Made by a program: the position numbers and the translations under genes | In this document: piece after piece, positions 15,164 to 32,277 of the stretch | How the letters are laid out: the number at the start of each line of letters is the position of its first letter | Position numbering within the stretch: position 1 is the first letter of the stretch | The notes under the pieces: generated by a model | What the model was told of the DNA's origin: nothing | The model's input: the letters and a program-made list of their open reading frames with translations, nothing else | Databases searched by the model: none | Assembly (NCBI GenBank): GCA_016840065.1 | Contig: JAEOTB010000077.1 | Span: 1 to 32,855, forward strand | Source: Candidatus Hermodarchaeota archaeon | GTDB taxonomy: Archaea; Asgardarchaeota; Hermodarchaeia; Hermodarchaeales; Hermodarchaeaceae | Length of the DNA stretch: 32,855 bases | Reading direction: 5' to 3'

Positions 15164-16945
15164 GTGATGCAGATGATTTCTAAGGAACTCAGGAGACGGT
15201 TTCTCAAGTTCTTCGAGAAACGGGGGCACTCGGTAATCCCATCAACCTCACTTATCCCTGAAATGGATCCAACAGTGCTTTTCACTACTGCGGGTATGCA
15301 TCCTCTGGTACCTTACTTAATGGGACAGCCCCACCCTCAGGGGCGACGGCTAGTAAATTGCCAGAAGTGTTTTCGTACGGATGACATCGAAGAGATAGGA
15401 GATACTTTCCATTTAACATTCTTTGAGATGTTGGGTAACTGGTCTTTGGGTGACTATTACAAACGAGAAATCATTGAATGGGCTATGGAATTCCTCATCG
15501 ACCCGCATGAGGGGTTAGGATTAGATAAGGAGAAGCTATCAGTCACAGTATACGAGGGCGATAACCAGATACCGCCTGACGAAGAGGCGGCAAATATCTG
15601 GGAAGAGATGGGGATACCAAGAGAACGCATTCACTTTCTTACCCGAGAAGATAATTGGTGGGGTCCTGTAGGAGATTCTGGACCTTGTGGACCAGATACA
15701 GAGATTTTTTTTGATGTGGGACTGAATTCCTGTTCGCCAGAGTGTCGCCCAGGTTGCGGATGTGGGAAATACATCGAAATATGGAATCTAGTCTTCATGG
15801 GATATAACCAAACAACTGAGCGCCTTTATCCCCCGTTGAAACAGAAGAATGTGGACACTGGTATGGGTTTAGAGAGAGCACTCCAAGTTATCAATGGTTT
15901 CCCAAGCGTATATGAAACCGACCTCCTCAGCCCAATAATGGAGAAAGTTAAGAGGATTGCCCGGATTCGAGAACCAAGCTCCGAACAGATACTAATATTG
16001 AGAATACTAGTCGACCAGGCTCGTTCTGCGATAATGGCGTTGGCCGATGACAAAGGATTGGTGCCGTCTAATGTGGAGCATGGCTATGTAATCCGTAGGC
16101 TTCTACGTGTTGCCATACGAAAAGGACTACAGTTGGGGATTAACGAGTCCTTCTTGGGTGAACTTTTACCTACAGTTCTTGCGATACTGGGTGATACTTA
16201 TCCTGAACTGCATCGAAACCAAGAACGCATTACAGCCGAAATTGCCAAGGAGGAAAAGCGGTTTCGATCAGCCTTACGTCGCGGTCTCCGTGTGTGCGAA
16301 AAAATCCTCAAAGAGAAGGGAGAATTGACTGGGAAAGATGCCTTCATGCTCTTCCAATCCCATGGGTTTCCGCTAGAGATGACTGCACAGATAGCCAAAG
16401 AGCACGGACAACAAGTAGATGCTTCTGAATTCAGAAAGGAGTTTGAAAGACACCGACAAATATCGAGAGAGGCATCTCAGGGACGCTTTCAGAGTGGGCT
16501 AGCCGACCACTCAGAGGAGGTAATCAGGCTGCACACTGCTACCCATCTACTCCATCAGGCTCTACGCCTTTTTGTGGGACAGGAAGTAATGCAGAAAGGG
16601 AGCAATATCACAAGTGAGCGTACTCGCTTGGATGTCCAGCTTGACCGGAAACTCACAGAAGAGGAGTTGCGCCAGGTGGAAGAATGGGTGAACGAGATTA
16701 TCCAGAGGAATCTTCCGATAAGAAGCGAAACAATGTCACCGGAAAAAGCGCTTGAAATAGGCGCCATTGGCCTCTTTGGTGAAAAATACGGTGACCAAAT
16801 CACGGTTTACTCCGTGGGCGATGTGTCAAGAGAAATTTGTACTGGACCCCATGTTGAACGTACTGGAGTACTCGGGACATTCCGTATTACAAAACAGAAA
16901 CGGATAGGAGCCAATACACTTCGTGTTCGTGGTGTCCTAGAGTAG
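15164..16945 (+). CDS. alaS: Alanine--tRNA ligase, short form lacking the C-Ala domain
   Basis: Motifs LFTTAGMHPL, HLTFFEMLGNWSLGDY, GPCGPDTEIF, EIWNLVFM and VDTGMGLER; editing motifs HTATHLLH and EICTGPHV. The protein ends right after the editing domain (593 aa). Confidence 0.95.
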   Translation: MMQMISKELRRRFLKFFEKRGHSVIPSTSLIPEMDPTVLFTTAGMHPLVPYLMGQPHPQGRRLVNCQKCFRTDDIEEIGDTFHLTFFEMLGNWSLGDYYKREIIEWAMEFLIDPHEGLGLDKEKLSVTVYEGDNQIPPDEEAANIWEEMGIPRERIHFLTREDNWWGPVGDSGPCGPDTEIFFDVGLNSCSPECRPGCGCGKYIEIWNLVFMGYNQTTERLYPPLKQKNVDTGMGLERALQVINGFPSVYETDLLSPIMEKVKRIARIREPSSEQILILRILVDQARSAIMALADDKGLVPSNVEHGYVIRRLLRVAIRKGLQLGINESFLGELLPTVLAILGDTYPELHRNQERITAEIAKEEKRFRSALRRGLRVCEKILKEKGELTGKDAFMLFQSHGFPLEMTAQIAKEHGQQVDASEFRKEFERHRQISREASQGRFQSGLADHSEEVIRLHTATHLLHQALRLFVGQEVMQKGSNITSERTRLDVQLDRKLTEEELRQVEEWVNEIIQRNLPIRSETMSPEKALEIGAIGLFGEKYGDQITVYSVGDVSREICTGPHVERTGVLGTFRITKQKRIGANTLRVRGVLE

Positions 16946-16947
16946 GC

Positions 16948-17442
16948 TCATTCATTCTGTATCTTAATTGGGAGCGGCATTAGATACATTTTGGAGACGT
17001 AGGTAGATCCACCACAGGCGCAGGTACCCTCCTCTTTAAAGACGAAATCACCCTTAGCCCATGTTCGTTCGCCAGTACGATTGCATTCTGAACAGAGTGT
17101 ACCTATAATTACTCCTACTTTCCTGAAAACTTGAAGGAGGTGGTTCAAACGACCTCTAATACTGCCGGCAACGACATAGACCACCATGGCTACCATTATT
17201 GTGATGAAGAATGTGCCGAGAAACGCGGTACTTATTGTTTCTGTTGTGGGGATAACTATTCCAAATATCGGAAAGGACATGTACATCCAGAGGGCAAATT
17301 CAATCATCAGTATTAGCATTAATATCGACGAAACTCTAGACGCAAACTTGTTCGTTCTTACTAAAGACTTGATTCTGCGTCCTAGCTTCCGTACGCGGTC
17401 AACTGTCCAAGATGGTCCTTCTTGCCACTTCTCATCAGACAT
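16948..17442 (-). CDS. Two-TM membrane protein with a C-terminal Zn-ribbon-like motif
   Basis: Two hydrophobic helices followed by CSEC...GDFVFK...CACG. Confidence 0.7.
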   Translation of the reverse strand: MSDEKWQEGPSWTVDRVRKLGRRIKSLVRTNKFASRVSSILMLILMIEFALWMYMSFPIFGIVIPTTETISTAFLGTFFITIMVAMVVYVVAGSIRGRLNHLLQVFRKVGVIIGTLCSECNRTGERTWAKGDFVFKEEGTCACGGSTYVSKMYLMPLPIKIQNE

Positions 17443-17501: not shown

Positions 17502-18962
17502 TCAACGGGCAAAAGTTTCTTCCGATTCTTGAGTAAGAAGAGACTTTGTTCTACTTCTTGTTGAGCCTCGAAAACTCCTTCGGCGTCCTTCTAGAAAGCT
17601 GCTAACGATGTTAAAGACAAAACTTTCTATAGACAGACCGAAGGCTTCATGTTGCCATCGAAACTGGGCGAAGGCACGAACTACTGCTAGGGGACCACGC
17701 AAAGTATGAATCATTTGACGCCCTACGAGGGCTGAAGTCAACGCAAGGGTTTCAAGTTGGCGTCTATCCCGCAAGTAACTGAGCCCACGATAACGGGAGA
17801 ACCCTGACCAGCCCGTCAACGATTGAGGCAAACGAGCACCTTCTTTTAGTGCCATCTCGAATAATGGTGTTCCCGGGTAGGGAGTGAAGATTTTTATGAC
17901 GAATTCAGCTTCCGGATTGATGCGATGCATACCCTTTATTGTGGCGATTGTCACTCGTCGGTCTTCTGGTGTTTCAGTGGGTATGCCTACCATCCATGAG
18001 TAGTCTGCTCTGACTCCTACGCTTTTAGTAATTTTAGAACTACGAACAAGTTGGTGAACTGTAATTTTCTTGTTAAGTAGCTGAAGCAACCTCGGTGAAC
18101 CTGATTCTGCACCGAAGAATAGGCATTTGCAACCCGCCCGTTTAACATCACGAGCGAGGCTACTTGTTAACTGATCTACACGGAGTTCAGCAGTCCAAGC
18201 TAATCCTTCCTTGTGGAAATAGGGAAGGAGTTTCCGGACACGCGCCTTATTTGTGAAAAATGCATCGTCAAAGAATAAGATGTCATCTGCACCTAACGCA
18301 ATCAAATGATCCAGTTCTCTTTGACACTGTTGGGCATTCCAGCCGCGCCAAGGCTGGCGAAGAATTGCATTATAACAGAAAGTGCATCGATATGGGCAAC
18401 CCCTGCTTGTAAGAGCGCTTGTGCGTCCTCGTGTGATATAGCGTCGTGGGTCAACCAACTCCCAGGGAACCGTTACCGTTGACATATCAGTGTGGGGTGC
18501 TAACCCTCCATTGTGGATTCTATTCTTCTGTTTGAAAACAAGTCCTTGAATTCGCTTCCATGCCATGTTTTGAACAAGTTGGGTGTACGCTCTTTCTCCA
18601 TCCCCCTGAATGACCAAATCAACATCGGGGTGATGCAGGGTTTGGAGGGGTAAAATTGTCGGGTGGATGCCACCCCACACTAATTTCGATTCAGGTACAT
18701 TTTGACGGAGGGCTTTGGTAACTTCAAGTGCATTCCGTATTTGTGGTCCAGTCATTACAGAGAGACCAATGTAGTCGGGAGTTGATTTAGCGGCAGCATG
18801 AACTACATCGTCGATTGTGTCATGGCGTAAATCGAATATCTCTACATCGACCCCGGCCTTTTGAAGAGCGTTTGCGATGAAAAGCACAGAGTAGGGGGGT
18901 GCAGGCCGCTGAAACTCTGAATATGCCAGGTCAGGATAAATGAGGATAGTATGCTTTGTCAT
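17502..18962 (-). CDS. B12-binding domain (class B-type) radical SAM protein
   Basis: N-terminal cobalamin-binding-type domain (PPYSVLFIA, VWGGIHPT, GDGE); SRGCPYRCTFC; GAESGS; FTPYPGT. Confidence 0.9.
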   Translation of the reverse strand: MTKHTILIYPDLAYSEFQRPAPPYSVLFIANALQKAGVDVEIFDLRHDTIDDVVHAAAKSTPDYIGLSVMTGPQIRNALEVTKALRQNVPESKLVWGGIHPTILPLQTLHHPDVDLVIQGDGERAYTQLVQNMAWKRIQGLVFKQKNRIHNGGLAPHTDMSTVTVPWELVDPRRYITRGRTSALTSRGCPYRCTFCYNAILRQPWRGWNAQQCQRELDHLIALGADDILFFDDAFFTNKARVRKLLPYFHKEGLAWTAELRVDQLTSSLARDVKRAGCKCLFFGAESGSPRLLQLLNKKITVHQLVRSSKITKSVGVRADYSWMVGIPTETPEDRRVTIATIKGMHRINPEAEFVIKIFTPYPGTPLFEMALKEGARLPQSLTGWSGFSRYRGLSYLRDRRQLETLALTSALVGRQMIHTLRGPLAVVRAFAQFRWQHEAFGLSIESFVFNIVSSFLEGRRRSFRGSTRSRTKSLLTQESEETFAR

Positions 18963-20065
18963 ACCGCATCCCTCTCTTTGCGATACTGGCGATAGCGATT
19001 CCGTTTACGCCAATAGGGAGGAAAAAGGCGTAGTCCACGTAGGAAAAGAGAACCCATTTTCCTTGTACCTATTAATCGGGATCGCTTTGCTATTTCAAGT
19101 AATTCTTCGCCTGCCGTGGTTCGTACAAAGAGAGCATTCGATAGGTATCTTGGGGGTAATTCAGGTGGTATTGTGCCACCAACTGAGAGGTCTGCAAGGT
19201 CTGAGGAATAATCAAAGCAATTCTCGTCGCATCGAAGCCGTTCCTTCTGGAGGTCCCGTAATAACATCAGAACTGAGAAGTCTACTTGTCCTGCAGTTGT
19301 GTGAACTCTGTAGGTCCGAATGCCTTTGAGTAAGGATGCACAGGCTGTGGTCACACGAGTTATCTTATCTAGTGGCACACCCTTCTCAGAAACATACTTC
19401 GCGAAACTCTCTGCTGTTAGCATTGCAGGGATTCCACAGAAAGTCCCAAGAATCACCCGGATCCGCTGTGTTAATTTCTGAAGTGATGGTTTGTCGGAAT
19501 ACTGCATCTTTCTCAGAGCGATAATATGACAAGGTAATCCGACGAAAAGCACTCGTTTTGCGTCACCGAGTTCCTTTAAAGCCCGTAAGTTTGGTGAAGG
19601 GAAGTACTTGCTCCCAAGACCTAATACTACGTCCTTGGGGTCCCGTATGATTTTTGGTCCTGGACGCCAGGGCTCGCCATCACCCCAAGAACAAATAATT
19701 GCTGCATCCACAAATCCTGAAGACAAGGCTGCATAAGTTAACGCGGAGGCAGTGCCGCCACCGTAGGCTTCTTTGCGAAGTATGGGATGTAGTGAGATTG
19801 CCTTGTAGACCCTTCGATATATACCGAATCCCTCGTCATCTTTTCGCAAGCGACCAAAAACCCGCTTTTCCAAAATGCTGTAGTCAGCAGTGATAGGACA
19901 AGCCTCTACACAAAGGCCCTCAGAGTAGCTAGAGCACCCGGTGCAGCCAATCACCTTAGCGTGATATTCTTTTAGAGTGACTGCCTTCACTGGACAGGCA
20001 ACAACACAAGCACCACAACGTCGACATTGGTCAGTGGGAATTAGCTTCTCAACGTTGTCCACCAA
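18959..20065 (-). CDS. FrhB/FdhB family (F420 hydrogenase beta-subunit-like) Fe-S flavoprotein with N-terminal ferredoxin
   Basis: CRRCGACVVACP and a second ferredoxin-like Cys group; GGTASAL, GSKY, VGLPCHI, GTFC and CFDYSSDLADLSVG. Overlaps the downstream radical SAM gene by 4 nt. Confidence 0.85.
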   Translation of the reverse strand: MVDNVEKLIPTDQCRRCGACVVACPVKAVTLKEYHAKVIGCTGCSSYSEGLCVEACPITADYSILEKRVFGRLRKDDEGFGIYRRVYKAISLHPILRKEAYGGGTASALTYAALSSGFVDAAIICSWGDGEPWRPGPKIIRDPKDVVLGLGSKYFPSPNLRALKELGDAKRVLFVGLPCHIIALRKMQYSDKPSLQKLTQRIRVILGTFCGIPAMLTAESFAKYVSEKGVPLDKITRVTTACASLLKGIRTYRVHTTAGQVDFSVLMLLRDLQKERLRCDENCFDYSSDLADLSVGGTIPPELPPRYLSNALFVRTTAGEELLEIAKRSRLIGTRKMGSLFLRGLRLFPPYWRKRNRYRQYRKERDAV

Positions 20066-20094
20066 TATCGTTCCCTTTCCAGAGTTCTACTAGG

Positions 20095-21606
20095 CTAATT
20101 TCGACCCGCTTTCTCTGCTTCTTTTTTCCTTGTACGCAGAGTTTGCATAATAAAGGACCCAAAAACACCAGTGGCTAGCCGCAATCCAACACGCATTAGC
20201 GGGAACCGTCCCTCTGCGACATATCCAAAAGCCTTGTTGAAAAATCGTAGATTGTGCTTCCAAGTAACCTCTAGAAGCTCCCAATGTGCGACTGTCATTT
20301 GCTCTCGAACACAGCGAGCCGATTGGGATAAAGCAGTATGTTTTACTGGCAAAAAGGAAAGGGGAAAGAAGAATGCTAGATGGTGAGTTAGGCTCTTGAT
20401 TAGGTTAATTGTTTCGCGGATGTCTTCTTCATCCTCACCAGGTAACCCCATGACCAAAGTGCAGCAGGGAAGCCAGCGGTTTTTATGCATGACATCAAGC
20501 GCCTCTTTTACTACTTCAGGCCACTCGCTGGGGTCACGTGGGTAGCATTTGTTTGGCATCAGTTCCTTAATGAGGCGGCCGCTTCCCGTTTCAAACCCAG
20601 GTTGGCACCCATAACCAGGCAGACCATGTTTTCGGATTAATTTAGTCAGTTTTGAGATGAAGTCGGGTTGGTGGGCGAAGGTAATCATGGATGCGTGGGT
20701 TAGAATCACGCGTTTTATGCCCAACTTGAAAAGCTCTTTGTAAAGTGTGAGGACTGCGTCCTCATCGCTCTCTAAGTTTGAGGAGCCGTAGCGGAGCGTA
20801 TCTTCAGACTGGATGGTCACTGACTTGATGCCCCGATCTAGATATGCTTGAGCATCTCCTAGAATTTTCTCAAGGGGAAAGCTGCGAAGTCTACCTGCCA
20901 CGCTAGGAGAGCAGAATTTACACCCCTTCCCGCAGCCACGAGTAATCTCTATGAGTGAGGTATTGGTGGGTCCAAGGATGCTAGGTACTTCCGTTTCCCG
21001 GGCTGGGAGACCTTGGATTACACGGTCTCCTGAGTAGGACCCTGATTCTAGCTCATTGAAAAGGTCAGGGATAACCCGTTCTCCCTCACCTACAAGGACA
21101 TGGTCTATCCCATAATAATCTTGGACATTGGGATCTTCAAGCTGCCAAGCGCCAGAACCTCCGAAGACGACTTTGAAGCCATGGCGCTCCTTCAAACGTC
21201 GAATACGGTGCATCAGGGCTGCAAACTTCAAGCGGTTTTGCGGCTGCCCACCCCAAAGTGCAACCCAGGATGTTGTGGCAGGCCCAATGCCCAATGGGTC
21301 CAATGCTGAAACTCCAACAATTTTAGTCTTTGAATCTATTACTCGGCTCACGTGATGGGGGTGTGCGATTCTGACATCACCTTCCCCATAACTGTCATTT
21401 CGAAGAATAGCTTCAACAGCTCTAAGAGAAAGAATAGGATAATCTGTGGTACCATCAGCGTTTGCAGGCACTGACCTACAAATCACATGTTTGAAGAGGA
21501 AATCCTGCACAATACGTCTAGGAAAAGTTGACAAGAATCCTGAGTATAGAGCGCCGATGAATTGATGCATTGCTGATGAATCTGCAGTTAGCACAGCACG
21601 CGGCAT
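20095..21606 (-). CDS. Radical SAM protein, GDGT ring synthase (Grs)/Gms-like family
   Basis: N-terminal VLTAD..M, DPLGIGP, GGSGAWQ, GEGE, EITRGCGKGCKFC, SEDTLRYG, THAS, GFETGS and GLPGE. This motif order matches my recollection of GrsA-like proteins. Confidence 0.8.
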   Translation of the reverse strand: MPRAVLTADSSAMHQFIGALYSGFLSTFPRRIVQDFLFKHVICRSVPANADGTTDYPILSLRAVEAILRNDSYGEGDVRIAHPHHVSRVIDSKTKIVGVSALDPLGIGPATTSWVALWGGQPQNRLKFAALMHRIRRLKERHGFKVVFGGSGAWQLEDPNVQDYYGIDHVLVGEGERVIPDLFNELESGSYSGDRVIQGLPARETEVPSILGPTNTSLIEITRGCGKGCKFCSPSVAGRLRSFPLEKILGDAQAYLDRGIKSVTIQSEDTLRYGSSNLESDEDAVLTLYKELFKLGIKRVILTHASMITFAHQPDFISKLTKLIRKHGLPGYGCQPGFETGSGRLIKELMPNKCYPRDPSEWPEVVKEALDVMHKNRWLPCCTLVMGLPGEDEEDIRETINLIKSLTHHLAFFFPLSFLPVKHTALSQSARCVREQMTVAHWELLEVTWKHNLRFFNKAFGYVAEGRFPLMRVGLRLATGVFGSFIMQTLRTRKKEAEKAGRN

Positions 21607-21695
21607 TTCAACATCCTCTGATTATCTTCTGCCTCTTTAATCTTCTACTTCTCTGATGTGAACTTGATTGGTTGGATGAGGAAAAAGAGGAGGAA

Positions 21696-21716
21696 TGGCG
21701 GCATACAATACCGCCA
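21696..21716 (-). terminator. Intergenic hairpin followed by a pyrimidine tract on the minus strand
   Basis: TGGCGG-catacaata-CCGCCA; on the minus strand it is followed by TTCCTCCTCTTTTTCC. Confidence 0.35.
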
Positions 21717-21745
21717 AGGATGTTTCGTGAGTAGCAGCTCATGGA

Positions 21746-22654
21746 TTAACGTCGGGTACTAGTTCGTTTGGAAAGGTGTTTCTTTGCGTGGGAGACAATC
21801 TGTATTACTGAGATGTGACAGATTATCATTAGTAGGAAGTTGAAGTAGCGAATCGCCTCCATCGTCAGCTGGTGGACGAAGAAGGGGAAGATAGCAAGTG
21901 GAACGAAAATTTCGACGTCGAAGACAATGGCTAGGTAGCTGAGAATCTGCATCCCTGCGGCTGTGGAGTAGAGGAGAATTCGATAGGGACGCTCACCTCT
22001 GGTTACCTTTACTTGGTGCAGTCCATCGGCTTGGTGTCGAGCTCTTGCATAGTCTACCATCACAAATCCAAAGAATGTTAGAAGACCCCAGAAGATGTCG
22101 ACGAAGCCTGCGAGTATGAGTGCGCCTACTACTGCTGCATCGGCGTATTTGTCAAGAACCTGGTCGAAGACACTGCCCCACTGTGATTGGTTTCTTGTAA
22201 GGCGAGCTACTGCTCCATCCAGTTGATCGAGAAGCCCTGAAAGGAGGAAGAGAGCGAACGCGAAGAACAACAGCAGCGTTGCTGTTAGTATTTGTGGTTT
22301 GAAGGTGTCATAACCTACCGCGGGCAGAAATCCCATCGGAGGAAAGAACATCTCCGGCCAAGTAAAGACTGGCTGCACTAGTAAAGCTGGTGTCACCGGT
22401 GCTAATGCCCATCCTGCCAGCAGAATGAGAGCTGCTGCAAGAAAGGAGGTGAAAATAGCGAGGTATGATACCTGATTCGGTGATAGGCCCATTCTTGCCA
22501 GGGCACGGGCGCCCTTGTAGGCAAAACCGAGCCATTTGAAGAGGAAAGGCTCCTTTCCTGCCTGGTCAACGGCTTCTTGAGCACCGTGTTCCTTGATCCA
22601 CGCCCCCAAGAATTCCTTGTAACTCAACCATTTTTCTTTTTCAGATTTTGGCAT
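21746..22654 (-). CDS. CDP-alcohol phosphatidyltransferase family protein
   Basis: Signature DQLDGAVAR...GSVFDQVLDKYAD (DxxDGxxAR...GxxxDxxxD); SPNQVS; multiple TM helices. Confidence 0.92.
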   Translation of the reverse strand: MPKSEKEKWLSYKEFLGAWIKEHGAQEAVDQAGKEPFLFKWLGFAYKGARALARMGLSPNQVSYLAIFTSFLAAALILLAGWALAPVTPALLVQPVFTWPEMFFPPMGFLPAVGYDTFKPQILTATLLLFFAFALFLLSGLLDQLDGAVARLTRNQSQWGSVFDQVLDKYADAAVVGALILAGFVDIFWGLLTFFGFVMVDYARARHQADGLHQVKVTRGERPYRILLYSTAAGMQILSYLAIVFDVEIFVPLAIFPFFVHQLTMEAIRYFNFLLMIICHISVIQIVSHAKKHLSKRTSTRR

Positions 22655-22660
22655 TAAAAT

Positions 22661-24088
22661 TCACTCCTTCTCGGTTTTCTCCCAAGTCTCAGGAACTTCA
22701 GGCGGTCGCATAGCTGTTCGAAACATAAACCAATACAGCTTGAAGAAACTGTAAAATGACATGATAAGTCCTGTTCGTTTTGCGTATCGCCGCGCTGACA
22801 CCATTAGGAGCAGCGTACAAAATATTGCGGGCACGATGAATATTAGACCAAATAGCCACCCATTAGTAGCCCAAGGGAGTCCAAATGATGGTCCGAGGTA
22901 GGCTAGCAGGAAGAGGGAGAGTCCGATGATTGTGCCGAAGAATGGATAGAAGGCGACAAAGTTAGCCATGACCAGAAACTCTAGCATTCCGAAGATGGCT
23001 TTTCGCTTGTTCTTTGTTACCTCCATTCGTCGTGAATTCTCTATATTCCAGCCAGCTGTCCAACGTGCACGCTGTTTTGCGAGCACATCCATTGATGTTG
23101 GTACATCCTCCCACGCTCTAGCGCGGGGGACAAATGCGAATCGACCCTCCATTTCAAGCAACTGGAAGGACACACGGATATCCTCCGTGAGGGCTTTGCC
23201 ATCATATCCACCCAGCTTGTCTAAAAGTTTCTTGCGTACGCAGTAATTTTTACCTAGCAAGAAAAATGGTCGACCGCGCTTTGTCTGCAATTCTTGGTAA
23301 AGACCCCCTCCGTCATGCCAAGCGTTTGCCAAAGCTTGTGCGCGAGTCAATTTATTGACACCCGCATTTTCCACCTGATTACTCCCCTGCGTTGCTAGAA
23401 CACCTTCCAGCTGCATTGGTCTAACCAGGTGGCTGAGCGCGTCTGGTTCCAGCCGCGTTTCAGCATCACATATCAGAATTACCTCATGTTTCGCCTGAGA
23501 TAAACCCAAACGGAGTGCCGAGGGTTTACCTTTCAGTGGTAGAGCTTTTGTTAGTACTTTGATAGGTCCGCGTTTGCCTTTCTCTTTGGCGATTTTTGCA
23601 GTGTTATCTGTTGAGCCACTGGCAATGACCAAGATTTCTAGCTTGTCCATAGGATAGTTTTGGCTGAGGAGCGCGTCTAGGGTGCCGCCGATGTATCGTT
23701 CTTCATTTAGGGCGGGTAATAAGATGCTAACAGAGGGTTCGTAGGGAGGGAGCGGTTTACCGATTCCCATTGATGAGAGGAAGAGGTAACCGAAATAGAA
23801 AGAATGCCAGAAGAATACGATAAACATTAGAGTTAGCAGAAGGAATGTCAAGAAGAAAACTGGGTTAAGAAGGGCGTTTAGCAGTGCGCCAGAGAAGATT
23901 GAATCTATGAGTAGCTGAGGGTTGATTGGCCAGAAACCAAGAGGGTTGTAGAAGTTAGAGTAAAGAAATGATATCTGTGGTTCAACGAAGGAGTACATTC
24001 CGAAGATGACGATGAGATACCAGAGAATAGCAGCGATGATGAGGCTTTGAGTTAATTTCCGTACTAATCGCATTAGATTGTCACTCAA
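22661..24088 (-). CDS. Membrane-bound GT2 glycosyltransferase
   Basis: Motifs SILLPALNEE, GKPSAL, ICDAE, LTED and KQRARW (QxxRW); TM helices at both ends. Confidence 0.9.
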   Translation of the reverse strand: MSDNLMRLVRKLTQSLIIAAILWYLIVIFGMYSFVEPQISFLYSNFYNPLGFWPINPQLLIDSIFSGALLNALLNPVFFLTFLLLTLMFIVFFWHSFYFGYLFLSSMGIGKPLPPYEPSVSILLPALNEERYIGGTLDALLSQNYPMDKLEILVIASGSTDNTAKIAKEKGKRGPIKVLTKALPLKGKPSALRLGLSQAKHEVILICDAETRLEPDALSHLVRPMQLEGVLATQGSNQVENAGVNKLTRAQALANAWHDGGGLYQELQTKRGRPFFLLGKNYCVRKKLLDKLGGYDGKALTEDIRVSFQLLEMEGRFAFVPRARAWEDVPTSMDVLAKQRARWTAGWNIENSRRMEVTKNKRKAIFGMLEFLVMANFVAFYPFFGTIIGLSLFLLAYLGPSFGLPWATNGWLFGLIFIVPAIFCTLLLMVSARRYAKRTGLIMSFYSFFKLYWFMFRTAMRPPEVPETWEKTEKE

Positions 24089-24146
24089 ATTTCAATGATG
24101 GATTGTACTCCCCACTATTAGTACAGGAATGATAAAAGTCTATTAG

Positions 24147-24893
24147 CTAACCCTCGGGAACTATCTCCTTTTGCTCAAGGTACCGCTGTATCTGTTTTAA
24201 CCGCGTTGCTGAGCGTTCTATAGAGAGGTGCCGGGCTGCAGTTAACACCGCGGGGCTTAGGAGGAACCTGATGCGACCCCAGCCCTGTTTGCGTATTAGA
24301 CGGAGGAGCTCATAGCTAAAAGCAGCATCTATCCCCAAGTTCCTAGGCACTGAAGGCAACCCTCCAACAGCGAAGAAGGCTTCACGACGAACACACATAT
24401 TACAACCGGGCAATTCAGGGTAGTTAAACAAATCCCTGAGCAAGTACCACGTTGCCATCATCAGAGATAGCGGTTCATAGCTGGTTAGCGTGAAGGTCCG
24501 TGAGCCTAACCTCCATTGTCGCACTCGCCTTCCGAAATATTTGTATCTAGCGCCGCACGCGAGGACCTTGGGGTGGCGGTCAAAAAACCGACAGATCCTG
24601 GTTAGGTAATTTCTTGGCAGTAATGTGTCTGCGTCAACAAGGCAGAAAATTTCACCTTTCGCCTTTTGTGCTGCATAATTAATTTGTGCTACTTTTCCCT
24701 TCCTAGTGGAGGTCAATACTTGTATACCTAGAGCCTCCGCGATGGTGCGGGTCTTGTCTGTACTCCCACCATCAACAACAATAACCTCATAGGGAAACCT
24801 AACATGCTGCTGCTTGGCTTTCTTTAAAACATCGCCGATTATTGTCTCCTCATTGAATGTTGGAATGAGGATGGACATCCGCATACTAGTCAC
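24147..24893 (-). CDS. GT2 glycosyltransferase
   Basis: Motifs ILIPTFNEE, VVDGGSTD, LVDAD (DxD) and PGCNMCVRREAF. Confidence 0.9.
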   Translation of the reverse strand: MTSMRMSILIPTFNEETIIGDVLKKAKQQHVRFPYEVIVVDGGSTDKTRTIAEALGIQVLTSTRKGKVAQINYAAQKAKGEIFCLVDADTLLPRNYLTRICRFFDRHPKVLACGARYKYFGRRVRQWRLGSRTFTLTSYEPLSLMMATWYLLRDLFNYPELPGCNMCVRREAFFAVGGLPSVPRNLGIDAAFSYELLRLIRKQGWGRIRFLLSPAVLTAARHLSIERSATRLKQIQRYLEQKEIVPEG

Positions 24894-24964
24894 CCTTTGA
24901 GAAGATTGCTTATCTGAGAAATGGAATACCTACTCCACTTAACATCTTAGTATAGGCAGGTTCT

Positions 24965-25708
24965 TCACGTAAAATCTCGAAGTGGGGCAAACGAGAATCG
25001 TCGCCTTCGAAGGAACCTGAGCAACTTCCTTAATCTATTCACGAAGGGAACACCAGTGTTTACCCATCGATCAGGCCGCATCAGAAGACCCTCAGCTTGA
25101 ATTCCAGCAGCCCTGAGGGGATGAACCATTGATACCGCTTCACTGGGGTGAAAAAAAAGGGTGAGCGGAGGATTACCTCGTGGAAAGAAGGTCTTGTACA
25201 ATCGTAAACCACCAGGAAACCTAAGAAAAACGTTTGGTATCGAAAGGGGGAACTCTACGATACTGGTTTGTCCTAGTTGGAGTCGCCGATGACGCGGCAG
25301 CCACATAGCTTGAGATGAATCATAACGATATCCCGCTGCTACAAGGGAAGGAAATAACGCCGAGGAGATACGAAGACGTGGTGCACGGAACCCTTCAACA
25401 GTTTGTCCAGTAACCTCCTCCAAGAGACGTTTTACCCTACGAAGTTCTGACGCGTGATCTGGTGATTGACCATCTAGAGTGGAATGGGTCAATCCATGGC
25501 TAGCCACCTCATGACGTGAGGAAAGGGTTTGGATAACTTTAGGAAAGGCATGAGCTAGACTACCTACGACAAAGAAAGTAGCTTGGATTTTCATTTCGTC
25601 AAGTATCTTCAGTATTCGAGGTAAACCCTTCTTGATGCCTAGATACGAGTCAGCGATACCAGGGCAGTCAGACTCCACATCAAAGGTAATAGCAGCTCTG
25701 ACCGTCAA
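24965..25708 (-). CDS. Polysaccharide deacetylase (CE4/NodB-type)
   Basis: Motifs ITFDVE, ATFFV, HEVASHGLTH, GFRAP, YDSS and FFHP. Confidence 0.9.
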   Translation of the reverse strand: MTVRAAITFDVESDCPGIADSYLGIKKGLPRILKILDEMKIQATFFVVGSLAHAFPKVIQTLSSRHEVASHGLTHSTLDGQSPDHASELRRVKRLLEEVTGQTVEGFRAPRLRISSALFPSLVAAGYRYDSSQAMWLPRHRRLQLGQTSIVEFPLSIPNVFLRFPGGLRLYKTFFPRGNPPLTLFFHPSEAVSMVHPLRAAGIQAEGLLMRPDRWVNTGVPFVNRLRKLLRFLRRRRFSFAPLRDFT

Positions 25709-25826
25709 TTCTCAAACACCACGAATACAAGCACCATATACTATCGCCGTTTAAGATATTTATGAAAGTGGAGGCTGAAGGACGGGAAGGATTATTACTA
25801 AAGAGTGGATAGAGAGACAGACCACA
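25709..25826. promoter_or_regulatory. Divergent promoter region between the two arms of the cluster
   Basis: 118-nt gap between divergent genes containing the AT-rich TTTAAGATATTTATGAAA. Confidence 0.4.
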
Positions 25827-27419
25827 ATGGCGTCATCGAGAGGATTCGAAGTTGTCCTAACTGCAAGTCGCGCAGTTATGAGCGACTACAGAGGAAACCA
25901 GGGCATGGGACTGAGCTCAGCGTTTCCAAGCCATCCGCTCTTTACCCCTTTCATTCAGCCAATCTTCACACTGAAGAGTGATGACGAGGGTCGAATGAAC
26001 CAAACCCACCTCGGACTTGGTAAAATCGAGGCTGCGTTGCTCTCAGATGGTTTTGCTAGGGAGCAAGTAGTTGTTGCCGATCCCACCAAACTTAACAAAG
26101 CTATAGGTCCTAAAACGAAGGTTGTTGGTATTACATGCCTTGATCCCTTAGGCCTAGGATACGGGGTCAAGGTTGTAAGCTTTCTCATGAAGAAACTTGG
26201 ACTTCCCTATTCCCAGTCTTATATTGCACACCACTTTCAGAGACTAATCAGAGATAAAACGCTTCAAAGATATCGAGAGAAAGGAGATTTGAGAGTAATT
26301 GTTGGAGGACCTGGTGTCTGGCAAATCGCTGACACAGGTATGCAGGAGAGCTTGGGAATCGACTGTCTTGTCGAATGGGAAGGGGAGTCGATAGCATCGC
26401 AACTCTTTCTAAGTGCAATAGCAGGTGAGCCTTTACCAAAGAGTGTAAGAGGTGAAGCACTCCCACCGAGAAAGGTTCCAACTCTACGGACCCCCAGCCG
26501 CTGTGGCATCGTCGAGATTACTCGGGGGTGCGGTCGCGGCTGCCGCTTCTGTTACCCAACTCAAATTCCCTTCCGTTCCTTCCCTATTGATGTCATTCTC
26601 AAGGAAATAAGGTTAAATCGGCGTGGAGGCGTTCCTCAGGTTTCGTTGCACAGTGACGATGCGATGCGGTATGGCTCGGAATCGTTGAAACCTAACCCAA
26701 ATAAAATGCTACGATTACTCCAAGCTGTGAAAGGAGAGATTCAAGGTCGTCGTTTTGGCTTTGACTTCTTTTCGGTAGCCTCAATCATGCAGGATCCAAA
26801 GCTTCTAAGCACCATTGCTGAATATATGGAGTTGGGAGGGCGCCACTACAGCACAGTTGAGGTCGGTATTGAGACTGGAAGTCCTAGGTTATTGAAGCGC
26901 CATATGTCTGGTAAGGTGAAGCCGTTTAGGGTAAAGGAGTGGCCCGACCTTGTAAGCGCAGCAGCCCAGAAACTCCATGATCATCAATGGATAGTTTGTT
27001 ACTCTATCATACTTGGACTGCCTGATGAAACACCCGATGATGTTCAGAGAACCAACGAGTTAGTAGACGATATCAAGAGCACCAATTCTGTGATAATCCC
27101 AATCATATTCATGCCTGCAGGGGGATTCCGCCGCCGCCAGAACTTCGGAATCGAAAATATGAGCCCAGAACATTGGGACCTCTACCTCAATTGTATGGAA
27201 CTCGTCCTAAAGAATGCTAAACTATTCGTGACTCACAGCTTCTCTCCATTCATGCAGCGAATAGTTGGAGACGCCATGCATGTAGCCCTCGGATATGTCC
27301 GTAAGAAGATTCGTAAATGGCGTTGGACAATCCGACGCCAAGAAGTGCCCTCACCGACAGAAAAAACAAGACCAATAACACATGCACCAACCTTTGAAGA
27401 GAGGGAGGTTGTTCATTGA
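25827..27419 (+). CDS. Radical SAM protein, Grs/Gms-like family (paralog 2)
   Basis: Motifs VVLTASRAVMSDY, GKIEAALL, DPLGLG, VGGPGVWQ, EITRGCGRGCRFC, HSDDAMRYG, GIETGS and GLPDET. Confidence 0.8.
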   Translation: MASSRGFEVVLTASRAVMSDYRGNQGMGLSSAFPSHPLFTPFIQPIFTLKSDDEGRMNQTHLGLGKIEAALLSDGFAREQVVVADPTKLNKAIGPKTKVVGITCLDPLGLGYGVKVVSFLMKKLGLPYSQSYIAHHFQRLIRDKTLQRYREKGDLRVIVGGPGVWQIADTGMQESLGIDCLVEWEGESIASQLFLSAIAGEPLPKSVRGEALPPRKVPTLRTPSRCGIVEITRGCGRGCRFCYPTQIPFRSFPIDVILKEIRLNRRGGVPQVSLHSDDAMRYGSESLKPNPNKMLRLLQAVKGEIQGRRFGFDFFSVASIMQDPKLLSTIAEYMELGGRHYSTVEVGIETGSPRLLKRHMSGKVKPFRVKEWPDLVSAAAQKLHDHQWIVCYSIILGLPDETPDDVQRTNELVDDIKSTNSVIIPIIFMPAGGFRRRQNFGIENMSPEHWDLYLNCMELVLKNAKLFVTHSFSPFMQRIVGDAMHVALGYVRKKIRKWRWTIRRQEVPSPTEKTRPITHAPTFEEREVVH

Positions 27420-28894
27420 AGATTGCACTAGTAAGTCCTGCTCCAAGTCAAATCGGTAAGCACCTATATGTGTATGAGAGTAGTGGAGGTATGCCACCGC
27501 TTGGCTTGCTTTATGTCGCTGGAAGCTTAGTTGAGAAAGGGCACGATGTCCTAGTAATTGATCAAGCTGCAGAGGGCCTCACGAATAAAACGGTTGCAGA
27601 GCGTGTACTACAAGCAGGAGCTGACTTGGTAGGTGTTTCTGCTTTAACTTCCTCTGCACTTCGTGCTGCAGAAATATCACGTCTTACCAAGAAAGCTAAC
27701 CCGAACATACACACTTTGATGGGAAATGTCCATGCTACTTTCTGTGCAGACCGGATACTAGACAAATACTCCCATGTAGACTTGTGTGTTCGCGGCGAAG
27801 GTGAGGAGACTATCGTTGAAGTCGTTCATGCTCTTGAGATGAATGGATATAGAAAGCTCAAACGAGTGAAAGGCATAACACTTCGAAACCGTGAAGGTCG
27901 CATAGTATCTACTGAAGATCGGCCACTAATCAAGGACCTAGACTCTCTACCGATACCCGACCGTACACTTCTTTCCCAAGATTATCATATCAAAATTGGT
28001 GAGATTGCTCTTCGAAGAGGGAAGTTTACAACGGTTGTCTCAAGCCGTGGCTGCCCCTTTGTATGCACCTTCTGTTGTTGTCATATCCTTTGCAAGCGAC
28101 AGTGGCGTGCTCGCAGTCCTGAGAATATAGCCGATGAGCTAGAGCTTCTCCAGAACCAAGGCTATGATCACTTCCTCTTTGCAGATGATAGTTTTACTGT
28201 GAATCCGCGTAGGGCAGTCAAGCTTGCCCACCTTATGCGTAAACGCCGAATTGAGATGGATTGGATTATCGAAGGTCGAGTTGATGCCGCATCGAGGGAA
28301 ATGTTTCAGGAGATGGTCCGTGCTGGCTGCCGCCTTGCTTTTTTCGGAATGGAGAGTGGTACTCAGCGCATCCTTGATCTTTATAAAAAGAAAACAACGC
28401 CACGCCAAAACCGACTAGCTGCTGCTAACGCTCGGGCTGCAGGTGTAGACATCATTGTTGGATCCTTCATTCTTGGTGGTCCTGGCGAGACTTTTAGAGA
28501 GATGCAAATCACCACTGATTTTGCCAAACACTGCGACATCGACTTCGCCCAGTTCAACATCCTCGGATTATCTCCTGGAGCTCCAATGTGGGATGAGGCG
28601 ATAACAAAGAGCTACCTTGACCCAGAACAATACTGGGAGAGCGGCGTATTAGCTGCGAACGTCTTTCCTGATTCGCCTCCCTTGACAAGAATTCGAGATA
28701 TCGCACGTGATGCTTTCATGGACTTCTCTCTGCGTCCTCGTTATCTAGTGAAAGAACTATTTCTTACACTTAGCAGCCCTTTCCGAATCAAGGCAATACT
28801 CTCTAGTGTTTCGAGTCTCCCACACTGGGTCAATCTTAGGCGTCTCTACAAATTCGTTGTACCCCCCACAGATGAAGGTAATGATGCTTCATGA
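27416..28894 (+). CDS. B12-binding domain (class B-type) radical SAM protein
   Basis: Motifs [37 protein letters not shown] and GMESG. Overlaps the upstream gene by 4 nt. Confidence 0.9.
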
Positions 28895-29983
28895 AGTGGA
28901 TGGAGTACGTTTCTTGATCACCTTTGCTGGGACTCCTGCCGCAATAGTCCACGGTGGTACATCTTCTGTAACTACTGCACCCACACCGACAATAGCACCT
29001 TCCCCGATGGTGACCCCTGGCATTATTGTAGAGTTCGCACCCACTCGACTCCAGCGGCACAGCTTGATTGGACCATAATAGAAAGTCATACGGTTTCCCG
29101 TGTCAATTATGCTATGAGTTAGCAATGTGCAGCCAATCCCCACACCCGAGTCATCTTCAAATTCAACGAGATCAGGTAACATAGGGTCTAGCCGGCTCCA
29201 TAAAGCGATGTGGCAATCCTTTCCAATCTTTGCGCCGGTCAGACGGAACAGTGCCCTTCGTGCCCTCGGCCATGCTGTTAAATGTGTTACAAATTCTGTA
29301 AGGAGGGTCAATACTGCACCTTTGAAGAAGCGGGCTGGTGAACGAACAGGAGCAGACTCGTTCTCCCATAAAGCTTGCTCGAACACCAAGGTCGGTGCAA
29401 TCCGTAATACACAATCAGGTTGACACCGGGAAGTATCAATGTGAATGTAGGTCAAACTATCCTTCCGTTCAACGGAGTAGCTTAGTAGACTGTATTGATG
29501 GCGCTCTCGTAATAAATCTCGATACCAGCAACTAAAATCGTAGAACCCTTCCAAGATTAAGATACTAGGCAAGAGCACACCAATAATATAACCAAGTAAC
29601 ATTACTGACTTTATCGTAAGATCGAGTAGGGATGAAAAGAATAGCACAAATGCACCATAAGCTATCAGGAAGAGTAACATTCCTGCCCACAATAACATCG
29701 CGCCTCCGTAGATGACTGTGCCCGCGATACGTCGCCTAGGAGCTATCGAATATCCAATTCCGAAAACAAACCCATCAAGAGCAAAGACCACTCCCCAAAC
29801 CAAGAACACTAATGGCACATACTCAACGAAAAACAGCCACACCCAGAACCACGCTATTTCTAATATCTCGCTTACATAGTAACCTAAGAGAGGTATGAAG
29901 AGAGAAGCGATGACCACACCTGCCGCTATCAGGACCAGCGTTAGACAACATTTCGAGCATCGAGACACTATAATTAACCTCAA
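28889..29983 (-). CDS. Membrane-anchored hexapeptide-repeat (LbH) acyltransferase
   Basis: About 4 N-terminal TM helices. C-terminal [10 protein letters not shown]...LLTH...[43 protein letters not shown]. Confidence 0.85.
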
Positions 29984-30024
29984 CCTTATTGGATTGGAAT
30001 TCTACGTGCCTCATTCATCCTCCG

Positions 30025-31617
30025 TCATTTGGGAAACCGCCAACCGAGGCTTCGTAGCAGTTTGTATCGCCGCTTGCGAAAGAGTCCGGCACTGAACATG
30101 AATAAACGATGAACTACAGCTTTCATAAATAGGTTGACTAAAGGGTTGGAGACACGACCTAGCCATAGGACGGCGTTTTCAAGGGTCTGCTCGATGCACT
30201 GCTGGAACAACGCCCACTGTTCTGGGGTCATTCGGTCAAAGGTTTGAAAGGTACTCCGCCTAAGACGACCTGCTGGGACGAAAATTACTGGTGTGATAAC
30301 GCAGTTGAAGTGTTTTATCCGATCCACGAGTTCCATGGTCTGCACAACATCTTTACTAGTCTCCCCCGGTAGTCCTATGATTAGTGAGTAGCAGCCAATC
30401 CAGTTATTCTCGTGAAGAACATTGGCTGCCTCTACTACGATCTCTGACCACTCCTCCATTTTGAATGGCTTCATCTTTCCTGGCATATGCTTTGCCAGTA
30501 ACTCGGGACTGCCCGTTTCGATTCCCATCTCGATTGTTGAGTAGCGACTTCCACCTAGCTCCATAATCTCTCCTACTTCTTCAAGGAGTTTCTCATCCTG
30601 TAGAATTGTTGCTGCTGACACAAAGCTAGCTCCGAACTTTGTGCCAGCTATTTCTTTCACTGCCTGCAAGAGTTGAAGAACAGGTTTTCTGACAGGTTTG
30701 AGGCTTGTCGAACCATATCGCAGGAAGTCATCCGATTGGAGTGAGACCTCACGTATTCCAGCCCGTTCGTTTACTCTAATATCTGCAAGTATTTGTTCCA
30801 GCGGGAAAGAGCGGAATTTCAAAAGCCCAGGAACACAGAAGCGGCATCCCCTTCCACAGCCTCGTGTAATTTCTACAATTCCGCAGCGGCTGGGTGTTAC
30901 CATTCTGGGCATCTCCTCTACGGAGACTGGTTTCCCTTGCACTCTTCTAGGTATAGGTTTTCCTTTTTGTGCGAGACGGAATAAATCACCAACGGCACCC
31001 TCTGCTTCTCCCTCTAGTATGCAGTCAATGCCTAGGCGTTCCTGCGTTCCTGTATCAGCAATCTGCCAGACACCAGGCCCACCAACAATAACTTTGAGTT
31101 GCCCCAATCGACGACGTTTCTGAATAATTGAGTTCCGAATTACTTGTAGGAATTCTGCGGACATGGTTGAGTGTCGACAGGGAATATGGAACTGCCTTAA
31201 CGTAAATTCTGTTACTTTAGCTCCATACGCTAGCCCGATTGGATCCAAGACTCCAATCCCTACTACTCTTGTTGCGGACCCTATTACGCGGTCTAGTTGT
31301 TGTGGATTAGCGATTATAACTTCATCCCTCTTGAACCCAGAAGCTAGCAATGCAGCCTCCACTCTGCCAATTCCTAGCTGGGCCATCTTCATTCTTCCGG
31401 CCTTGTCACTAGGAAGTTGAAAGATTCCCATCATCTTCCAGAAAGGTCTCAAATCAACGGGGAACATTGAAGCGTATCCAGAGCCAATGCCAAATCTGTA
31501 GTTTGCCATTAATGCGGTACCCGCTGTCAGTACAATTGGGTAACCAGTGTTGGCAGCCTTAGTCATGGTAAAGCATTCTACTTGCTGTACTTTCTTTAAA
31601 CTCTGATGCTCAATCAA
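30025..31617 (-). CDS. Radical SAM protein, Grs/Gms-like family (paralog 3; likely start at the ATG at 31566)
   Basis: Motifs GYPIVLTAGTALMANY, GRVEAALL, DPIGL, VGGPGVWQ, EITRGCGRGCRFC, QSDDFLRYG, GIETGS and GLPGET. Confidence 0.8.
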   Translation of the reverse strand: MIEHQSLKKVQQVECFTMTKAANTGYPIVLTAGTALMANYRFGIGSGYASMFPVDLRPFWKMMGIFQLPSDKAGRMKMAQLGIGRVEAALLASGFKRDEVIIANPQQLDRVIGSATRVVGIGVLDPIGLAYGAKVTEFTLRQFHIPCRHSTMSAEFLQVIRNSIIQKRRRLGQLKVIVGGPGVWQIADTGTQERLGIDCILEGEAEGAVGDLFRLAQKGKPIPRRVQGKPVSVEEMPRMVTPSRCGIVEITRGCGRGCRFCVPGLLKFRSFPLEQILADIRVNERAGIREVSLQSDDFLRYGSTSLKPVRKPVLQLLQAVKEIAGTKFGASFVSAATILQDEKLLEEVGEIMELGGSRYSTIEMGIETGSPELLAKHMPGKMKPFKMEEWSEIVVEAANVLHENNWIGCYSLIIGLPGETSKDVVQTMELVDRIKHFNCVITPVIFVPAGRLRRSTFQTFDRMTPEQWALFQQCIEQTLENAVLWLGRVSNPLVNLFMKAVVHRLFMFSAGLFRKRRYKLLRSLGWRFPK

Positions 31618-32177: not shown

Positions 32178-32277
32178 TTGTGAAACAGTACTAGACCGCG
32201 AGCCTGTACAATTTAACAAAGTTTAAATTTGTAATTTAATTACATAATTCACAGTGAAAAATGAGTGGATTCATGAA

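Follow-up and report, generated by a model that had tools for sequence, protein, structure and literature searches.

A conserved radical SAM-rich gene island in a Hermodarchaeota archaeon and its possible role in the tailoring of a membrane glyco-phospholipid

The DNA studied here, which we call the window, is a stretch of 32,855 nucleotides from the genome of a Candidatus Hermodarchaeota archaeon (contig JAEOTB010000077.1 of assembly GCA_016840065.1). Positions 17502-31617 hold an island of 11 contiguous genes, termed g1 to g11, in which radical S-adenosylmethionine (SAM) proteins, among them relatives of the glycerol dialkyl glycerol tetraether (GDGT) ring synthases (Grs), lie together with head-group-type enzymes. 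A preliminary description, made from the sequence alone, had proposed a pathway that tailors an archaeal membrane lipid. The layout it gave agrees exactly with the open reading frame (ORF) list: g1 to g7 form a minus-strand arm, g8 and g9 a divergent plus-strand arm and g10 and g11 a convergent minus-strand arm, with 4-nt overlaps between g1 and g2 (18959-18962) and between g8 and g9 (27416-27419), the remaining gaps being -6 to 139 nt. Its domain calls for the 11 genes were confirmed by Pfam, and the CxxxCxxC motif is intact in all five radical SAM proteins. The features are as follows (GT2 and CE4, glycosyltransferase family 2 and carbohydrate esterase family 4; LbH, left-handed beta-helix).

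17502..18962, minus strand: g1, B12-binding and radical SAM protein, 486 residues
18959..20065, minus strand: g2, ferredoxin-like 2x[4Fe-4S] and FrhB-like protein, 368 residues
20095..21606, minus strand: g3, divergent Grs-family radical SAM protein, 503 residues
21746..22654, minus strand: g4, CDP-alcohol phosphotransferase, 302 residues
22661..24088, minus strand: g5, membrane GT2, 475 residues
24147..24893, minus strand: g6, soluble GT2, 248 residues
24965..25708, minus strand: g7, CE4 deacetylase, 247 residues
25709..25826, 118 bp: intergenic spacer of the divergent pair g7/g8, presumably with a shared promoter
25827..27419, plus strand: g8, Grs-family radical SAM protein, 530 residues
27416..28894, plus strand: g9, B12-binding and radical SAM protein, 492 residues
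28889..29983, minus strand: g10, membrane-anchored hexapeptide-repeat (LbH) acyltransferase, 364 residues
30025..31617, minus strand: g11, Grs-family radical SAM protein, with a likely start at 31566 (513 residues, as in the called protein)

A two-domain architecture, with a Rossmann-like and a radical SAM domain, is common to the five radical SAM proteins, and their clustering goes beyond chance. Five of the 26 PF04055 matches of the genome fall within 14.1 kb of 2.59 Mb (Poisson P ~4e-7 per window), a test that is not fully independent because g8 and g11 are paralogues (50% identity). The assembly, 2.59 Mb in 131 contigs, is 84% complete. The island is flanked by housekeeping genes; neither a tRNA nor an integrase was found in the window, nor does the GC content of the island stand out, so that there is no support for a recent origin from a mobile element. 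The stretch is present in three marine-sediment DNA runs of one study, and no RNA dataset is listed among those that contain it.

The synteny check proposed in the preliminary description found the island on at least 12 other contigs, and the gene order is shuffled among them. Contigs of the Hermod type that carry the island or parts of it (L001, L003-5, L181-183, L203, L208, L209 and JGI 3300042731) show 53-92% identity. Within the same genus, each of the three other species has it on short contigs (L181-183; 69-92% identity), so that four species altogether are covered. L208 and L209 keep the arm g7-g6-g5-g4-g3-g2-g1, and in L203 the island lies, inverted, between the same two flank genes. 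The g5 and g4 orthologues of L208 (JGI 3300034378) are fused into a single protein of 721 residues (L208:5183-7345; 56% and 59% identity), and a second sequence that spans g5 and g4 (P0323, 663 residues) is 85% identical to this fusion; in the window, the g5 stop is followed by the g4 start after 6 nt, in frame. Intermediate contigs (L197, L199, L204, L205) hold a g8-type Grs gene (49-52%) with CE4, GT2, g4-like, g9-type and g10-type genes, to which LuxE-like synthetases, a multi-transmembrane (TM) zinc-ribbon protein, a U32 protein or SPASM radical SAM proteins are added. The radical SAM content of the island varies between species. The adjacency of g7 (CE4) and g8-type Grs genes is kept in four arrangements, divergent and co-directional with 14-60 nt gaps, and no other feature of the Grs-containing islands is as well conserved. 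Because the gene set is kept together despite rearrangement, its members are functionally coupled, and the view of the locus as one conserved biosynthetic island is supported.

A more distant form of the island occurs in Loki/Hel-type genomes (L185-187, L194, L196), which share the core g1, g4, g5, g6, g7, g9 and g10 at 28-46% identity, with up to five g9-like copies. Compared with this form, the Hermod-type variant adds three Grs-family genes and the FrhB-like protein and is without the LuxE-like synthetase, alpha/beta-hydrolase, SCP2 and U32 genes that neighbour the Loki-type core; in L194 the gene with the SCP2 lipid-transfer domain lies within the island. A separate observation concerns the intermediate contig L204 (JGI 3300069122), where the gene for a SPASM radical SAM protein precedes one for a protein of 999 residues that joins radical SAM/SPASM and aromatic prenyltransferase (PTase_Orf2) parts (L204:10513-12052).

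Based on the acyltransferase gene g10, the distribution among Asgard archaea is patchy: it was found in 70 of 400 genomes, in 3/3 of the own genus, 0/15 of the sister genus and 58/135 of family f9. Such a distribution, with one genus of its family carrying the island, together with the variable radical SAM content, could fit a specialised metabolite. This would be a moenomycin-like phosphoglycolipid (a prenyl-phospho-sugar methylated by B12 radical SAM enzymes), secreted or made in small amounts, for interactions with other microbes. The resemblance of Gmm-type B12 radical SAM enzymes to the moenomycin methylase MoeK5 (PMC11214058) points the same way. We regard this as very improbable, since no resistance or export genes were found in the island, it lies among the housekeeping genes described above, a tRNA and an integrase are both missing, no scaffold genes of the bacterial moenomycin type were seen, and Grs enzymes act on membrane tetraethers.

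Analysis of the protein sequences assigns g3, g8 and g11 to the Grs family. They match Pfam Radical_SAM (PF04055) with 53-59 bits, the B12-binding match being weak or absent, and their cluster-binding motif is found at residue 225 in g3 (CGKGCKFC), at residue 235 in g8 (CGRGCRFC) and at C254 in g11. As references we used proteins of Sulfolobus acidocaldarius DSM 639, which carries 18 radical SAM genes (PMC8941075). GrsA (Saci_1585), GrsB (Saci_0240) and the tetraether synthase Tes (Saci_0703) were confirmed by name; the SPASM protein at Cds (Saci_1489), whose identity is inferred from position and annotation, and the B12 radical SAM protein Cgm (Saci_1785, 584 residues) were taken by genome position. 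In full-length BLASTP alignments of 450-500 residues (E 1e-61 to 1e-76, in a small database) the identities to GrsA and GrsB were 32.4% and 30.2% for g8, 30.4% and 27.4% for g11 and 30.4% and 27.7% for g3. A careful maximum-likelihood tree of 49 sequences (a 46-row Grs group against Cgm, g1 and g9, without TK0167 and Cmaq_1853) separated the Grs group, including g3, g8, g11, GrsA and GrsB, from Cgm, g1 and g9 with support of 100/100. GrsA and GrsB also share with the three island proteins the same weak, below-cut-off NCBIfam pattern (TIGR04013).

The g8 structure was modelled with AlphaFold2 (pLDDT 89.9), and in the model a Rossmann-like N-terminal domain and the radical SAM barrel are joined by two long helices at the C-terminus (residues 447-469 and 474-506). 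GrsA was described with two long C-terminal membrane-binding helices (PMC11186832). A Foldseek search with the model returned only two-domain radical SAM proteins, the best being MgmA, MiaB, AprD4 and TsrM at a TM-score of ~0.5. By sequence, the best PDB relatives of the radical SAM proteins of the island are MgmA (9ccb), AprD4, TokK, OxsB and MiaB/RimO.

Within the Grs family, g8 and g11 form a clade of their own with the island-linked homologue of L199 (100/99). This clade is nested in a 17-row clade (99/95) that includes Nitrososphaerota, Ignisphaera, Thermoplasmatales and Caldivirga/Acidilobaceae. The backbone among GrsA, GrsB, g3, which sits on a long branch, and a paralogue on contig C23 of the same genome is unresolved. 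Orthologues of g11 are 84-88% identical in the same-genus contigs, and those of g3 70-76% identical in L001, L208 and L209. Outside the Hermod-type lineage, Grs homologues are mostly solitary or paired genes. A Grs homologue on a contig labelled Desulfobacteraceae (L020, CAYZXU010000055.1) is nested in a Thermoplasmatales clade (support 99-100), which means that the contig was misbinned or that the gene was transferred into a bacterium. The C23 paralogue itself (C23:12907-14484; L206:8018-9675) lies outside the island and adjoins two zinc-ribbon proteins of 182 and 327 residues. Multi-TM zinc-ribbon proteins recur in L001, L197, L199 and L203-205, and such proteins may be an unrecognised partner of Grs-type enzymes; the zinc-ribbon genes of the sister islands gave no tblastn match in the window.

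The preliminary description had called the three genes Grs/Gms-like. The tree bears out the first half of this label, and the second half is wrong because Gms is a SPASM-type radical SAM enzyme (PMC11186832), a domain that Pfam finds in none of the five island proteins. In the sequence and domain searches, none of the five proved to be Gms-, Cds- or Tes-like. A Tes identity was tried for g1, g3, g8 and g9 and rejected, as these show no match to PDB 7tol, which the reference Tes protein matches at 1e-135; a BLAST match to Saci_0703 was seen for none of the five. A Cds identity was rejected likewise (no match to Saci_1489 at E 1e-3).

The other two radical SAM proteins, g1 and g9, carry a B12-binding domain (PF02310, 77.7 and 84.4 bits) and a radical SAM domain (PF04055, 56.7 and 81.5 bits), both above the Pfam cut-offs, with the motifs CPYRCTFC at residue 189 of g1 and CPFVCTFC at residue 213 of g9. 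No NCBIfam equivalog cut-off was reached by either protein: g1 scores 124 bits for BchE and 107 for HpnJ, and g9 scores 206 for BchE (cut-off 481), 175 for HpnJ (~578), 124 for HpnR (650) and 199 for ApyD (750). The GDGT methylase Cgm gives the same below-cut-off BchE/HpnR/HpnJ pattern as g9, with 142 bits for HpnJ, so a label such as BchE/HpnJ-like is unspecific. Cgm is the closest characterised relative compared with g9 (31.6% identity by BLASTP; 25.9% for g1) in a comparison that covers Cgm among the lipid B12 radical SAM enzymes, without Gmm and Ted, and both island proteins have basic, amphipathic C-termini as Cgm does. A quick tree of B12-type proteins places g1 in an orthogroup (support 100) with genes of L208 and of the Loki-type islands L185 and L194, and g9 inside a large Asgard clade; Cgm groups elsewhere. 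Orthologues of g9 at 88-90% identity are confined to its own genus, and homologues at ~43% are common in Loki-type genomes. By this placement, g1 and g9 form Asgard-specific clades of the broad BchE/HpnJ/Cgm-like group.

The HpnJ score of g9 and the g7/g8-type adjacency raise the option of a head group that is carbocyclic or rearranged in some other way. On the pattern of the HpnI-HpnK-HpnJ route to the hopanoid cyclitol ether and of Cds (calditol), a GT2 would place N-acetylglucosamine (GlcNAc) on a lipid, g7 would deacetylate it and a radical SAM enzyme would rearrange the sugar, this enzyme being either the g8-type Grs homologue beside g7, in which case the substrate of the Grs clade would not be a lipid tail, or g9 or g1. 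The triad of GT2, deacetylase and radical SAM protein is indeed that of the hopanoid pathway (PMC13459092). The score of g9 lies far from the HpnJ cut-off, however, and is similar to that of the tail methylase Cgm; Cds is a SPASM enzyme that matches none of the five proteins; a sugar substrate is not known for any member of the Grs family; and Loki-type islands hold the CE4 gene without Grs genes. We therefore judge a rearranged head group to be quite unlikely.

Beside these enzymes lies g2, which matches FrhB_FdhB_N (56 bits), FrhB_FdhB_C (70.5 bits) and Fer4 families in Pfam. It misses the FrhB equivalog cut-off (81 vs 331 bits), and no hydrogenase genes were found among the window ORFs. The g2 subfamily comprises ~10 clusters at >=58% identity (at least 58%), with the next relatives at 31%, and its members in L208 and L209 keep the g3-g2-g1 arrangement. 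CofD is encoded in the genome.

The remaining genes are of head-group type, and the composition given in the preliminary description (FrhB-like protein, CDP-alcohol transferase, two GT2s, CE4 deacetylase and TM-fused acyltransferase) was borne out by Pfam, TM helices and motifs; g4, g5 and g10 are predicted integral membrane proteins. The g4 protein (PF01066 CDP-OH_P_transf, 37.3 bits) has ~6 TM helices, an intact CDP-alcohol motif (DxxDGxxARx8GxxxDxxxD, residues 143-168) and an N-terminal extension that is common to island-linked orthologues elsewhere. With the archaetidylinositol phosphate synthase model NF040950 (cut-off 180) it scores 87 bits, compared with 199 for a copy on C69 and 141 for one on C81. 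It is a third, diverged archaetidylinositol-phosphate-synthase-like copy, the canonical one being on C69, and its best solved relatives are PIP/PI synthases and IPCT-DIPPS. The membrane GT2 g5 matches GT2 families of Pfam (Glyco_transf_21, 49.6 bits) and has two N-terminal and three to four C-terminal TM helices and the motifs TED and QRARW; its solved relatives include PcManGT-type GT2 enzymes, BcsA and ceramide glucosyltransferase. The soluble GT2 g6 (PF00535, 107 bits; DAD motif at 87) resembles polyprenyl-phosphate glycosyltransferases, with dolichol-phosphate mannose synthase among its solved relatives, and has orthologues of 43-45% in Loki-type islands. The CE4 motifs TFD, HGLTH and RAPR are present in g7 (PF01522, 68.1 bits), whose best matches are polysaccharide and chitooligosaccharide deacetylases. 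In g10, four to five N-terminal hydrophobic helices precede a hexapeptide domain (Hexapep, 28.6 bits) that resembles WcaF-type polysaccharide O-acetyltransferases. Full-length relatives of g10 carry Asgard names only, and its TM part gave no usable match in a search of the ESM Atlas.

Taken together, we suggest that the island probably, if by no means certainly, makes a membrane-anchored glyco-phospholipid that is tailored by radical SAM chemistry, and that it is the Hermod-type variant of an Asgard-specific island. In such a pathway, g4 would equip an archaeal ether lipid, either archaeol or a tetraether, with an inositol-like phospho-polyol as head group, g5 and g6 would add (N-acetyl)hexosamine or hexose, g7 would remove the N-acetyl group and g10 would re-acylate the head group. 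On the isoprenoid chains of the same lipid, g3, g8 and g11 would form C-C bonds (rings), and g1 and g9 might methylate, desaturate or otherwise modify inert carbons. Low-potential electrons for the radical SAM clusters or cobalamin would be supplied by g2. The lipid reading is supported by the kinship of g4, whose relatives are all inositol-phosphate-type lipid or polyol phosphotransferases and whose catalytic motif is intact, by the GrsA-like helices of the g8 model, by Cgm as the closest characterised relative compared with g9, by the membrane character of g4, g5 and g10, by the SCP2 gene of L194, by the presence of Tes in close relatives and by the clustering of known lipid radical SAM genes. 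For the lipid-tailoring proposal of the preliminary description, the linked and conserved island, the Grs membership and the intact head-group genes thus speak in favour; orthology to characterised enzymes was not obtained. Its wider wording, one heavily modified ether glyco/phospholipid that could be the source of an orphan sediment lipid, we keep as an inference.

Several observations weigh against a tailored membrane lipid. In the maximum-likelihood tree, neither g8/g11 nor g3 is an orthologue of GrsA or GrsB, and in the quick tree g1 and g9 fall in clades apart from Cgm and are not its orthologues; the reactions of the named enzymes therefore do not reveal the chemistry of these proteins. 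No gene for the ether-lipid core lies inside the island. Neither Grs nor FrhB-like genes were found in the Loki-type islands L185-187, L194 and L196, and this core without Grs means that its product can be made without Grs chemistry. Among solved proteins, g1 and g9 are closest by sequence to AprD4, the substrate of which is an aminoglycoside sugar. Lastly, g5 combines the QxxRW motif with a PgaC-like topology, as in processive polysaccharide synthases, and its best NCBIfam match is PgaC_IcaA (TIGR03937, 117 bits vs a cut-off of 422).

Most of these points can be gathered in another hypothesis, that of a surface glycan or exopolysaccharide island. Here, g5 would be a processive synthase of a polymer like poly-N-acetylglucosamine or chitin, g7 would partly de-N-acetylate and g10 O-acylate the polymer, g4 would add a phospho-alcohol decoration or a lipid primer, and g1 and g9 would C-methylate or deoxygenate sugars. 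The Grs-type genes would act on a polyprenyl (dolichol-type) carrier or would be linked by co-regulation alone. The motifs and topology of g5, the deacetylase matches of g7, the WcaF-like domain of g10, the likeness of g6 to polyprenyl-phosphate enzymes, the AprD4 relationship and the Grs-free Loki-type core are all consistent with it. Yet Pfam turned up no gene for a flippase, a polymerase, an export protein or an oligosaccharyltransferase in the island, and g5 reaches no curated cut-off for PgaC, NodC or CelA. Other points against it are the archaetidylinositol-phosphate-synthase type of g4, the fusion of g4 to g5 in relatives, and the Grs genes: every characterised enzyme of that family has lipid chains as its substrate, and a specific Grs clade is tied to the island in seven contigs. 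A glycan product is accordingly held to be unlikely, with a chance that deserves to be kept in mind.

A further question is why Tes, which would be expected to supply the tetraether, is not seen. It was not found in the 84%-complete assembly, where the best match reaches 31 bits over the radical SAM core, and this too counts against the membrane lipid. Nor did NCBIfam reveal a Tes among 10 further radical SAM ORFs of the genome, and a variant radical SAM protein of 581 residues on C7 has no PDB match. Tes is present, however, in the same-genus genome G156 (E 1.7e-115), in all 15 sister-genus genomes and in 50/61 relatives. The check for Tes that was proposed in the preliminary description thus found none in the assembly itself and found it in close relatives, and the absence is most simply explained by assembly incompleteness. 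The sole weak Tes match in the genome is a SPASM radical SAM protein of 443 residues (C38:19388-20719; L013), NirJ2/AhbD-like below the cut-offs, which could be a heme-pathway enzyme or a Gms-type protein.

Returning to the membrane glyco-phospholipid, a more specific form of it can be imagined, namely a glycosylphosphatidylinositol (GPI)-like, acylated aminosugar-inositol-phosphate ether lipid, of which the core or, more radically, the head group is cyclised and alkylated by the island-specific radical SAM enzymes. We offer this version as speculative and rather unlikely. If true, the Grs family would gain a new substrate or reaction, and an orphan sediment lipid would gain a genetic source.

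To our knowledge, the radical SAM enzymes of archaeal lipids (Tes, Grs, Gms, Gmm, Cgm, Ted and Cds) have been found singly or in clusters of two to three genes, and next to nothing is known of the polar lipids of Asgard archaea, the archaea most closely related to eukaryotes. The island indicates that tail-type and head-group-type enzymes are held as one unit in Asgard archaea. The gene set that it defines consists of three paralogues from a new Grs clade, B12 radical SAM proteins of two Asgard-specific clades, an additional transferase of the archaetidylinositol-phosphate-synthase type that is GT2-fused in relatives, and an Asgard-only membrane acyltransferase, and it could link orphan sediment lipids to Asgard producers. 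The preliminary description knew of no cluster of such composition, and we likewise found no description of the island in the literature searched (the Tes, Grs, Gms/Gmm and Cgm/Pgm/Ted/Hgs papers and a 2026 review). The review makes no mention of Asgard archaea (PMC13459092), and ~10% of Ted homologues come from them (10.1101/2025.10.20.683597).

Some features around the island should also be mentioned. The alanyl-tRNA synthetase (AlaRS) ORF at 15164-16945 (plus strand, 593 residues) ends after the tRNA_SAD domain, with the usual C-terminal part missing; an AlaRS of the same length at L203:6251-8032 makes it look like a conserved short or split form. Between AlaRS and g1 lies up164 (16948-17442, minus strand), a protein of 164 residues with two TM helices and a Cys-rich C-terminal tail (CxxC...CxC). 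Its 56% orthologue stands beside AlaRS in L203, so that AlaRS and up164 are the flank genes shared with that contig, and up164 marks the island border. It was considered as a counterpart of the multi-TM zinc-ribbon protein of the sister islands and rejected as not homologous, being a flank gene. At 8956-9897 (plus strand), 8 kb upstream, an integral membrane protein of the DUF92 family (TIGR00297) is encoded, a family that includes phytyl-phosphate kinase-like proteins; it is conserved at the same flank in L203. An ORF of 335 residues at 10990-11997 (minus strand) weakly resembles the C-terminal domain of squalene-hopene cyclase, at 22 bits and below the cut-off, and has a counterpart of 331 residues in L203. 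The window ends are occupied by a bactofilin-like ORF on the left (167-1042, minus strand, 28.7 bits) and, on the right, by a proline-rich, extensin-like ORF that runs off the end (32254-32853, plus strand).

Comparison with known systems shows how far each likeness reaches. With GrsA and GrsB, g3, g8 and g11 share the full-length architecture at 27-32% identity, and the g8 model has the two C-terminal helices. They differ in that g8 and g11 belong to an island-linked clade, g3 sits on a long branch, and all three are embedded among head-group genes. Clusters with Grs genes were described from Thermococcus guaymasensis (gms-grs-gmm; PMC11214058) and from Bathyarchaeota B1_G15, in a neighbourhood of grs, ted and hgs where grs adjoins ted (10.1101/2025.10.20.683597). 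As in these, a Grs gene of the island is co-located with Gmm/Cgm/Ted-like B12 radical SAM genes; unlike them, the island is without a Gms (SPASM) or an AttH-like Hgs gene and couples tail-type with head-group-type enzymes. The B12 and radical SAM architecture of g1 and g9 is that of Cgm, from which they are about as far removed as Ted is from Gmm (31%; 10.1101/2025.10.20.683597), and the difference lies in their separate Asgard-specific clades. The HpnI-HpnK-HpnJ and Cds systems have in common with the island the sequence of sugar transfer to a lipid, deacetylation and a radical SAM step (PMC13459092), whereas the HpnJ and HpnI models score far below their cut-offs, the SPASM enzyme Cds is unrelated and there is no hopanoid context. 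PgaC/IcaA and PgaB/IcaB likewise pair a QxxRW membrane GT2 with a CE4 deacetylase; apart from the low score of g5, the island differs from them in having no PgaD/IcaD or export component and in the fusion of its GT2 to a CDP-alcohol transferase in relatives.

The early steps of mycobacterial phosphatidylinositol mannoside and of eukaryotic GPI synthesis consist of an inositol phospholipid, the transfer of a sugar or GlcNAc, de-N-acetylation and acylation. The enzyme set of the island would fit the same reaction order and, by analogy, would give an acylated glucosaminyl-inositol phospholipid. The proteins are of other kinds, with a GT2 in place of GT4/PIG-A, a CE4 deacetylase in place of PIG-L and an LbH protein in place of PIG-W/PatA, so the likeness is one of analogy and not of homology.

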